Made by a program: the position numbers. A DNA stretch of 63,923 nt, counting the filler, from an uncultured Methanosarcinales archaeon (lineage in GTDB: Archaea > Nanobdellota > Nanobdellia > Woesearchaeales > CAZXZL01): assembly GCA_964645415.1 (NCBI GenBank). It is 4 parts of 4 records of this genome, joined end to end, with 100 filler letters (N's around TTAATTAATTAA, not from the genome) between each part and the next. Parts side by side here need not be neighbours in the genome. Positions count along the whole stretch, not along the records: positions 39,465 to 58,707 come from CAZXZL010000016.1; 3 more parts are not named here. One strand, given 5' to 3'. Below are positions 47,981-50,900 of the stretch, in pieces (the stretch's first letter is position 1; each line of letters begins with the position of its first letter).

Positions 47981-50900
47981 TCTAATTGCTTATTATAAAT
48001 CTAAATTCTTTTTGATATATTGTTAATTTTTTGATATAATATATATTCTATTTTTAGTAATTAAATTTGATTGTTTTTATTTGTATTCTTTAAATTTTTG
48101 TTTGTGTTCATGTGTTCAATCACTGTTCATTTGTGTTCATGTGTTCAATTACTGTTCATTTGTGTTCATGTGTTCAATCACTGTTCATTTGTGTTCATGT
48201 GTTGTTCAAAGTCCTTTATGTCTATTTTATGTGTGTTAGAGGCTTTCTCTCTTTTTGTGTTCATTGTTGTTCATTACTGTTCAAACATTATTGAACACTG
48301 TTTGAACGTTCATGAACAGTTCATGAACACTCTTGAACACTCTTGAACAGAAGATTTGTATTTGTTTTCTCATATTAGTTTTATTGTCGTTTTATGTAGG
48401 TTTTAGCTATTTTGTGATTATTTGAATATTTTGAACACTGTTCATGAACACCTTTGAACACTCTTGAACACTGTTCAAATTATGAACTTATTTTGAAAAG
48501 AATTTATTTGTTTTTAATCAAACTTATTTAGAATTTCAATACAAATAATTTTATTAAGAACATTGATTTTAAGTTTATAATATGAAAAAAGGAATGAATT
48601 TTCTTGAAATAAATACTATTAAAGAAGAGATTGAAGAAATGATGCCTATTAGATTTGGTCAAATTTATCAAATTGATGATACTTTTTTAGTAAAGTTAAA
48701 AAAAGGATATTATATTAGAATTATTCTTCCTAATTTAATCTATTTATCTCATAAAAGAGAAAATATTGATAGAAGTGGTAACTTTGCTCTTTTCTTGAGA
48801 AGAAGAATAAAGGGAGCATATGTAAAAGAAGTGAAACAATTGAGAAGTGAGAGAATTGTTTATTTTAAACTAGTCTCTAAAGGCAAGGTTTTCTTTTTAT
48901 TTGTAGAACTATTTAGTAAGGGAAATATTATTCTTACTAATGAAGATAAAGAAATTATTGGTGCTTATCATTCAAAAATAGGTAGTAGTAGCTTTGAGAA
49001 AGGAGAAACTTATAATCTTGATAATCCTTATGATAATCTCTTTGAACTTTCTGAAAAAGACTTTAATGAAAAGTTTGAAGATGTAGATCTTTTTGAAGTG
49101 ATAAAAGGTGGTTTTGGAAAAGTTTTAGCACATGAGATATCTCTTAATGAAGATAAATCAAGGTATGAAAACTGGAAGGAGTTACTTTCACGTGAGAGAA
49201 AAGGAATACAGTATTTTGAAGAAGGGGAAGATGAGGATATTAAGGACATTTCACCAATAGAATTGAATTATTATTCTAATCTTAAAAAGAAAGAATTTGA
49301 TACATTCTCTGCTGCTTTAGATGACTTAACTAAGAGATTTTATGAAGTAGAAAATAAAGAAAAAAAAGCTTTAAAAAAATCTCTTCGAGATCAAAAAGGA
49401 AGAATTGATGAAATTAATGATGGTGTGAAGTTAAATAAGAAAAAAGCTGAGTTTTTATATCATAACTATCAAGAGATAGAAGAGATTTTAAAGATGATGA
49501 GAAAAAAGTTTGAAAAAGAAGGTGTTGATGGTTTAAAGAATTTCTTAAAAGAAAATAACATTCCATTTAAAAATATTAATTCAAAAGAAAAATCTGTTGT
49601 TTTAGAGTTTGATGATTAACATATGAAAGCCATTATATTAGCTGCTGGAAAAGGTAAAAGATTAAGACCTTTAACTAAAAAAATTCCTAAACCTTTAGTT
49701 AAAGTATCAGGTTTTCCAATTTTAAGTTATCAAATAAATGCTTTAATTAATTTAGATATTACTAATATAATTATTTGTGTCGGTTATAAAGGTAAAAAAA
49801 TTATTGAATTTTGTAATTCAAATTATTCAAATGTTGATTTTACTTTTATAAATAAATCTAATCTTCAATCTACTAATAACTTATATAGTCTTTATTTAGC
49901 TGAAAAATATTTGAAAAAAGATATCCTTTTAATGAATGGAGATGTTATTTTTGATAAAGAAATATTAGAAGGTATGATTAAAAAACCTTATAGTCAAATT
50001 GCAGTAGATAAAAATAATTATCTTAAAGAGTCAATGAAAATAAAGCTAGATGATTCAGGTTATGTTAAATCAATTTCAAAAGAGATTTCTGAAGAACATT
50101 CTTATGGGTCTTCTATCGATATTTATTTAATTAAGGAAAATGAATTAATTTTTTTTAAAGAAATAATGAAAAAAATTATTGAAATAGATAAAAAACTTGA
50201 TGTTTGGACAGAATTTGCTTTAAATAAAACATTAAAAAATGAAAATGTTTGTTTTTTACCTTTTGAGATAAATGATTTAAATTGGATTGAAATTGATGAT
50301 TATGATGACCTTAATAAGTCTAAAGACCTTTTTAATTAATTTTTTGTGTGGTTAAAATGATGTTAATAAAAATAATTAGTTCTTTTTTATATATCGTTTT
50401 AGATATTCTTTTATCTTTTTTATCCTACTTAATACCTAAAAAACAAGGTTTAATTGTTTTTACATCGCACTATGGAGAGAAGTATAAAAATAATAGTAAA
50501 TATTTATTTGAGTATTTAAATAGTAATCTTGATCTTGAAAATAAACTTAATGAAGGTAATTTTTTATTTATTTGGGCAACAAGATCTAAAGAAGTTTATA
50601 AAAGTTTACTTGAAAGAAACTTAAAATGTTCTTATACATATTCGCTTAAACACATATATTATATTCTAAGAAGTGAATCATTTGTTATTGATAATTCTTT
50701 AAAAGGAATTTTTTTTACAAATGTTTTTAGTTTTTTAGGAAGGTTTAATGTAATACAATTATGGCATGGTACAGGTTTTAAAAAAATAGTACATCAAGAT
50801 AAAAAAGTTAATTTTATTAAAAAAGTTTATTATTTCATGAGATCTTCAACAATTAATAAGGTTATTGCTTCTTCAGAATGTGATAAATCTAAAAAACAAG

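Follow-up and report, generated by a model that had tools for sequence, protein, structure and literature searches.

RqcH encoded by two genes, divided at the turn of the M-domain hairpin, in small archaea

Introduction

Can the ribosome quality control factor RqcH be made from two separate genes and, if so, what do its halves do? This question is raised by a gene in the window (the whole stretch of 63,923 nucleotides analysed, filler included, from the woesearchaeal genome assembly GCA_964645415.1) that encodes the N-terminal part of the protein and then stops. In the published papers, as far as their accessible text goes, ribosome quality control in archaea has not gone beyond a proposal, and the Pbp11 paper, in the part accessible, calls it a suggestion. 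A natural two-chain RqcH would make the tRNA-holding and ribosome-anchoring halves separately testable, and its cut site could guide the engineering of split RqcH or NEMF.

Results and Discussion

Two genes tile the archaeal RqcH model

The genome (961 kb, 79 contigs) has two non-contiguous genes of the COG1293 family, on contigs C16 and C28, and each piece was found as a single copy by tblastn and by six-frame hmmsearch. The first lies in the window, the second outside it, and the features that concern us are as follows.

43273-44469, near the N-half: MATCAP-like peptidase (PF08014)
44904-45896, near the N-half: NurA
48582..49619, + strand: rqcH N-half gene, a closed open reading frame of 345 aa (PF05833, E 3e-22; NF041120 positions 3-378, 143.6 bits)
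48849..48854, + strand: E90-R91, equivalent by profile alignment to the B. subtilis D97-R98 tRNA-binding loop
48906..48926, + strand: E109-N115 loop, equivalent by profile alignment to the B. subtilis E121-I122-M123 loop
49329..49511, + strand: first coiled-coil helix and the next helix, residues ~250-310, predicted to pack against C-half residues 28-68
49587..49619, + strand: residues 336-345, the final beta strand of the N-half, plus its stop codon; here, where the M hairpin turns, the gene breaks off
49623..50339, + strand: nucleotidyl transferase gene (NTP transferase, PF00483), unrelated, 3 nt downstream of the N-half
49623-51972, near the N-half: CDP-glycerol-type transferase cluster
53002-54582, near the N-half: UvrC
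C28:24-854, outside the window: rqcH C-half gene, a closed open reading frame of 276 aa (NF041120 positions 376-644, 281 bits)

Together, the two frames tile NF041120, the archaeal RqcH model of 645 positions, and since positions 3-378 fall on the N-half and 376-644 on the C-half, nothing of RqcH is missing; PF05833 is divided in the same way, with positions 5-365 on the N-half and 366-418 on the C-half. This bears out an earlier note on this DNA, which had described an RqcH split into two unlinked genes with an unrelated gene right after the first. Because that nucleotidyl transferase gene begins at 49623, the N-half does end at its stop. The same note had left reference residues ~370-465 unmatched by either piece; the tiling leaves no such gap, which probably arose in pairwise alignment. 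The curated cut-off of NF041120, 400 bits, is set for a single polypeptide, and the separate genes score 143.6 and 281 bits. As neither half reaches it, the C-half is named 'DUF814 domain-containing protein' in databases. Calls of RqcH absence are therefore unsafe in small archaea, as single-protein cut-offs miss RqcH in most of those sampled.

In the N-half, NFACT-N and an eroded HhH region are followed by the first helix of the coiled coil, the helices of the M domain and the first of the two hairpin strands; its cluster representative is a 341-aa form that starts at Met5. The NFACT-N expected of the archaeal family is present, with the PF05833 match and with DR-type and EIM-type loops at E90-R91 and E109; in the N-half alignment E90-R91 is nearly invariant, and E109 and G114 are invariant. 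By loose regular expressions, each of 54 distinct N pieces has the acidic-basic tRNA-loop pattern, and D-x-x-x-H is found in all but 5 of 161 distinct C-type pieces, thus in 156 (locus L033 of the unpublished genome G258 entered the motif, length and neighbourhood counts). In the HhH region of this N-half, the first motif is partly retained and ~15-20 aa are then absent, while most relatives have the region intact. The N-half is 21-33% identical to its relatives, a divergence that we count against the heterodimer proposed below, and it forms the longest branch of the N tree, being the fastest-evolving among those sampled. Upstream of it, 47764-48480 contains low-complexity repeats and a 100-N gap (47822-47921). 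A promoter scan gave 4 sites where 7 are expected by chance.

The C-half had been described as an NFACT-R gene. NFACT-R is indeed there (PF05670, E 2e-32), and with it come the other strand of M, the other helix of the coiled coil and a C-terminal region, so that NF041120 is covered to position 644 of 645, and there is no match to PF18297. Like solo NFACT-R proteins (CCDC25/Jlp2) and ThiI-NFACT-R fusions, it is a stand-alone gene with NFACT-R, but it differs from them in these added parts and in co-occurring with an N-half, whereas CCDC25 coexists with a whole NEMF; on these grounds we rejected a solo NFACT-R or ThiI-NFACT-R_2 as its identity. Of the DWH-type motif, D113 and H117 are present and W is replaced by V, and S97 and K122 stand where the columns are nearly invariant D and G, which we also count against our proposal.

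The closeness of this gene to the contig end had cast doubt on its start. An in-frame TGA lies directly before its ATG, so the frame is closed and in-frame fusion to unseen upstream DNA is impossible; the upstream neighbour does lie beyond the contig. C-halves of relatives begin at the equivalent of Met15 (C28:66), which, going by this alignment, may be the true start. Public contigs reach 31 and 10 nt past the end of C28, are identical to it over 1-1500 and possibly come from the same source DNA, and the exact 276-aa protein is recorded from 3 contigs, the longest of 92 kb. The first 20 nt of C28 recur at the start of another contig, which suggests that a short repeat at this end breaks assemblies.

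The cut lies at the turn of the M hairpin

A beta strand closes the N pieces, with 0-7 further residues behind it. C pieces open with the strand that follows and go on into the helix with which the second coiled-coil arm begins; in single-chain relatives, a turn of 2-4 residues joins the two strands. The break sits at model position ~378/380 in the same order, in a sample of the Micrarchaeota phylum and in a third phylum. The two strands (338-343 and 346-351) stand between helices 251-305 and 356-394 in the AlphaFold model made for a single-chain relative of 600 aa (mean pLDDT 89), and a Foldseek search with this model retrieved NEMF 9gy4 (E 2e-35), Rqc2 8aaf and RqcH 7aqc. According to the accessible text of Takada 2021 (PMC8373112), a small beta-hairpin domain, M, sits between the helices and touches uL11. 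Human NEMF and yeast Rqc2 carry a low-complexity insert of 46-49 aa at the same profile position as the cut, which marks the hairpin loop as permissive, and a cut there is thus tolerated.

All positions of the coiled coil with its M hairpin are present, on two chains, and the structure is re-formed in a predicted complex of N-half residues 225-345 with C-half residues 13-80. The complex scored 0.78 and the best of 3 controls 0.00; the mark for this score is reached by 116 of 157 solved pairs and by 2 of 215 mismatched pairs, counts that hold roughly here, as our own alignments were used. At least 96% of the contacts agree between runs, with a partner pLDDT of at least 84. The predicted antiparallel strand pairs are, N-half to C-half, 338:20, 339:19, 340:18 and 341:17, accompanied by helix-helix packing. 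The prediction supports binding of the halves and is no proof of it, because likeness to solved single chains (NEMF 9gy4, Rqc2 8aaf and RqcH 7aqc) may by itself give a pass, and the score is silent on affinity.

Split, single and lost states

Among 61 genomes of the same order, at least 95% complete and searched with NF041120, both halves occur in 57, the C-half only in 2 and neither in 2; none has a single chain, and in none (0/61) is the whole-protein cut-off exceeded, which agrees with the stand-alone halves across relatives described before. The halves had also been said to lie on separate contigs. This holds here (C16 and C28), but in five genomes of the same order (G055, G095, G225, G236 and G336) both are on one contig, 25-420 kb apart. 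A wider search found PF05670 in 191 of 201 genomes of the order (counting the unpublished G249, G258, G266 and G315), in frames of 248-479 aa among the matches listed (150 frames). The closest named records are mostly from Woesearchaeota, plus Nanopusillus, in keeping with the order assigned to this genome in the earlier note. The sampled genomes are relatives rather than independent trials.

The split is not particular to Woesearchaeales, as had been supposed. Both halves occur in 5/5 genomes reached by way of Micrarchaeota-titled records and in all 61 of a Micrarchaeota phylum sample (including the unpublished G415), and in both sets the C-half begins near model position 380. Split genes in Micrarchaeota were reportedly described in Baker 2010, going by the accessible part of a paper that cites it. 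In a third phylum, reached through locus L409 and grouping with Micrarchaeota in the gene tree, both halves are found in 29 of 31 genomes, the N-half only in one, and the C-half with a probably foreign single chain in one. The last is on G648:C60, a 4.7-kb contig, where the single-chain RqcH is 62% identical to RqcH of Thermoplasmatota and is likely to reflect contamination or transfer. The same break is present in records titled complete, namely N. acidilobi 7A, the GW2011_AR15 chromosome and F. limneticum Sv326.

Many other families of the same class have single-chain forms, as do 13/15 genomes of an Asgard-titled phylum sample, and the supplement of Burroughs and Aravind 2014, where accessible, gives proteins of 587 aa for Parvarchaeum ARMAN-4, 632 aa for Nanosalina and 374 aa for Micrarchaeum ARMAN-2. 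RqcH is absent from many class members: in a neighbouring order of the class, that of genome G077, a match of any kind was found in 35 of 151 genomes and no match in 116. Solo NFACT-R frames for which no N-half was found occur in G110 (136 aa), G016 (a 277-aa frame with NUDIX) and G032 (249 aa). In G417 (L330:130-2610, - strand) the N-half runs into a TPR-repeat protein in one 827-aa frame, either a fusion or a lost stop. A search for fused forms of at least 652 aa returned 15 ordinary single chains, which is weak evidence.

Several apparent exceptions were set aside. The differing break of G040 coincides with a run of N, and we treated this genome as single-chain or unknown; the breaks of G039 and G004 sit at contig ends and were left uncounted. 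Long frames in G143 (667), G339 (529), G367 (528), G405 (675) and G655 (625) proved to be artefacts of the search table, and the 479-aa frame of G157 has a typical start near residue 211.

A probable heterodimer on stalled 50S subunits

We consider it probable that the two genes encode one protein of the RqcH/NEMF family, an obligate heterodimer that acts as RqcH on stalled 50S subunits. As modelled, the strand that ends the N chain would pair with the one that opens the C chain, and the two long helices would rebuild the antiparallel coiled coil, giving the single-chain shape. By analogy with B. subtilis RqcH and eukaryotic NEMF, the dimer would bind large subunits left with peptidyl-tRNA after splitting; NFACT-R on the C chain and the distal CC-M, to which both chains contribute, would anchor it there, NFACT-N/HhH on the N chain would hold the anticodon arm of the tRNA, and the dimer would add a template-free C-terminal tail that marks the nascent chain for degradation. 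We count in favour that aRF1, a pelota-like gene and Cdc48 are present in this genome and that the C-half has a value in the N. acidilobi proteome. Against it we count that the N-half has no value there, that many class members have lost RqcH or retain a solo NFACT-R, that no report of archaeal tailing was found in the literature searched, and that the halves are unlinked, with equal output left unaccounted for.

In B. subtilis, according to the accessible text of the preprint (Crowe-McAuliffe, 10.1101/2020.09.03.281279), NFACT-N/HhH contact the tRNA anticodon arm and can be dispensed with in 50S binding, the 50S is touched directly at just two places, by NFACT-R and by the distal CC-M, the coils open scissor-like in one state, and mutation of the DR or EIM loops abolishes tRNA binding. 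From these contacts, tRNA holding would fall to the N chain, one anchor to the C chain and the stalk-base contact to both. The idea of a tRNA module and a ribosome module working as two proteins thus survives in part, as the division roughly follows function but is not clean. That the halves would need to assemble on the 50S subunit does not follow: each chain supplies part of the coiled coil and part of the hairpin that contacts the stalk base, and the halves therefore most likely fold together before 50S binding.

A heterodimer could form and yet add no tail, serving instead to stabilise 50S peptidyl-tRNA, to block the re-joining of subunits or in RNA maturation. We found no report of tailing by any archaeal RqcH in the literature searched, the N-half precedes an RsmB-type methyltransferase gene at 11 of 56 distinct N loci, and an RNA-modification role was proposed by Burroughs and Aravind 2014, in the part accessible. 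We nevertheless think this unlikely: the loops needed for tRNA binding in B. subtilis are retained, RsmB is unlinked in this genome, and bacterial and eukaryotic members do tail, according to the accessible parts of the sources. A different possibility is that the C-half alone is a 50S-binding factor, with the N-half either loosely associated or a decaying relic. The dispensability of NFACT-N/HhH for 50S binding in B. subtilis would suit this, as would the N. acidilobi proteome, which in the accessible part of Wurch 2016 (PMC4935971) gives the C-half an MS1 value, at rank 58 and with no spectral share, and lists no value for the N-half. It is also in keeping with the solo NFACT-R remnants of G016, G032 and G110, with the fast evolution of this N-half and with the 2 of 61 same-order genomes that show only a C-half. 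Both halves, however, are kept in 57/61, 61/61 and 29/31 genomes of the three samples despite the lack of linkage, and the N-half retains the interface helix and terminal strand, of which, judging from the model, an unpaired coiled-coil helix and edge strand would lie exposed, and we regard a C-half acting alone as quite improbable.

Very little speaks for the halves being joined after synthesis to a normal chain by a split intein or RNA trans-splicing, and we hold this to be very improbable. For N. equitans, Table 1 of Podar 2013, in its accessible form, does list tRNAs joined in trans and a split DNA polymerase, but here only a few residues lie between the hairpin strands and the free ends of the two pieces, too few to accommodate intein halves, and neither piece has an extra Pfam domain. 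An artefact of assembly or binning, or a pseudogene, might be suspected in a draft of 79 contigs with the C gene 23 nt from a contig end; with both frames closed, and the same break found in complete-titled records and on one contig in five genomes, this is scarcely credible.

Relation to known RqcH proteins and to earlier split genes

The heterodimer that we favour would have the same domains in the same order as single-chain archaeal RqcH (NF041120, ~650 aa), from which it differs in being two polypeptides from unlinked genes. With B. subtilis RqcH, yeast Rqc2 and human NEMF it shares the fold, the DR and EIM loops and the D..H of the DWH motif; these are, in contrast, single chains in which tailing has been demonstrated, and the eukaryotic NEMF and Rqc2 have a long insert where this RqcH is cut.

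The split had been put forward as new, but the same gene with the same cut is found in Table 1 of Podar 2013 and in Supplementary Table 1 of Wurch 2016. In their accessible parts, Podar 2013 (PMC3655853) lists a split 'predicted RNA-binding protein' with the pairs NEQ438/NEQ506 and Nst1_176/Nst1_251, divided at the same site and assigned to arCOG01695, equal to COG1293, and Wurch 2016 (PMC4935971) adds Nps_00030/Nps_03140 to the split arCOG01695 list. COG1293 is the RqcH group in the accessible text of 10.1101/2020.09.03.281279, and NEQ438 (332 aa) stands in the NFACT list of the Burroughs and Aravind 2014 supplement, as far as accessible. In the Nst1 record we find the NF041120 halves at C2:3373 and C2:74205, fitting the gene order in the supplement; these halves are EOD42448.1 (336 aa) and EOD42521.1 (254 aa), they end and begin at the same alignment columns as those of our genome, and the C-halves are 42% identical.

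The present split is thus a further member of a split already printed under another name, and it is lineage-wide and real. The accessible parts of those papers call it Nanoarchaeota-specific, predate the name RqcH and place no cut; here it is found across a large order as a whole and in two further phyla, interspersed with single, linked and lost states. What goes beyond the earlier Nanoarchaeota listing is the precise site of the cut, its occurrence in three phyla and the likely re-fusions described below, and a 20-year-old 'split RNA-binding protein' now has a name, RqcH. A statement that RqcH is split, or that the split extends beyond Nanoarchaeota, was not found in the literature searched, which includes few subscription papers, nor in the accessible parts of PMC4075521, PMC6514570, PMC6349945, PMC8407392, PMC9540759 and 10.64898/2026.05.13.725050.

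Linked halves, probable re-fusion and gene neighbourhoods

In the order of G077 we inspected the loci of part of the 35 genomes with a match, plus three others. Among these loci, an N-half, cysS with up to two other genes, and a C-half follow one another on one strand in 11 genomes (G077, G469, G484, G488, G500, G503, G506, G524, G568, G580 and G588), of which one locus is given here with its coordinates.

L209:2609-5741 (G077:C27), genes head-to-tail: N-half, cysteinyl-tRNA synthetase, C-half; also at L344, L347 and L369-L376

In G524 the N-half consists of two open reading frames. The run often stands after a pilin-like open reading frame and before S19e-L39e-L31e. Short single chains of 550-600 aa are found in 8 genomes (G468, G470, G472; G489, G504, G514, G525; G565), and in 6 of the 8 they come directly after the same pilin-like frame. 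At G488:C7 (L371), cysS is apparently interrupted by a 270-aa open reading frame. Table frames of 1101 aa in G484 and 1345 aa in G588 had the look of a triple N-CysRS-C fusion, but the DNA has separate open reading frames in one frame.

In quick-search trees built on the combined alignment of N and C columns, with SH-aLRT as the sole support measure, the single chains of family f46 are sister to split f46 genes (SH-aLRT 97-98), and those of f184 nest with split genes of f50, f182 and f180 (SH-aLRT 96-97); trees built from each half separately bear out the f184 placement with either half, and the f46 placement with the N half but not with the C half. In AU tests on 31 rows, with long branches such as that of our genome excluded, a clade uniting the split forms was rejected (p=1e-6), and so was a clade uniting the single chains of f46 with those of f184 (p=3e-6). 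As the single chains nest among split forms, at least two re-fusions are indicated, and two re-fusions also give the fewest changes (3 in all). On this comparison of sequences, it is quite likely that the single chains of the neighbouring order arose by re-fusion; several parallel fissions inside that order are a possible alternative. At depth, split forms stand in three places of the gene tree, and a single deep split clade against the other single-chain members of the class was rejected under LG+G4 (p=1e-4, 26/36 rows), though not with the C half alone (p=0.229, in a set without the re-fused forms). Either a single old fission followed by repeated re-fusion or three separate fissions may lie behind this. 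The apparent re-fusions bear on the debate over whether split genes in these archaea are ancestral or products of one-way decay, as the state here looks reversible.

A bolder reading, which we think rather unlikely, is that rqcH in DPANN-type archaea toggles between one and two genes at the permissive loop and also makes use of the two-chain state. The N-(rsmB-nip7)-cysS-C gene run would be the intermediate, with at least two re-fusions, and the C-half might stay on the stalled 50S subunit as an anchor while the tRNA-holding N-half is recruited or exchanged in trans. Such exchange is speculation; if true, it would turn the scissor-like opening of the coiled coil into a true on-off step of tailing.

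The halves of our own genome lie in no conserved operon, and its cysS, RsmB, Cdc48 and S19e genes are on other contigs. Elsewhere, among 165 distinct C loci, 11 (L108:3190-4014 and related loci titled Nanopusillus) have a solo Cas4-like nuclease directly upstream of the C-half. At L409:505-6673, the C-half is preceded by what we take to be a topoisomerase I-like gene and a macro-like open reading frame, and followed by a presumed RadB-like gene on the opposite strand and a Cdc48-like gene. On C28, the C-half is followed by L44e, eIF5A, a 60-aa zinc-finger open reading frame, presumably L40e-like, and an M50 protease (C28:959-3050), and the same contig carries a long RelA/SpoT homologue (HD_4, RelA_SpoT and TGS; 629 aa) at C28:5565-7454 on the - strand.
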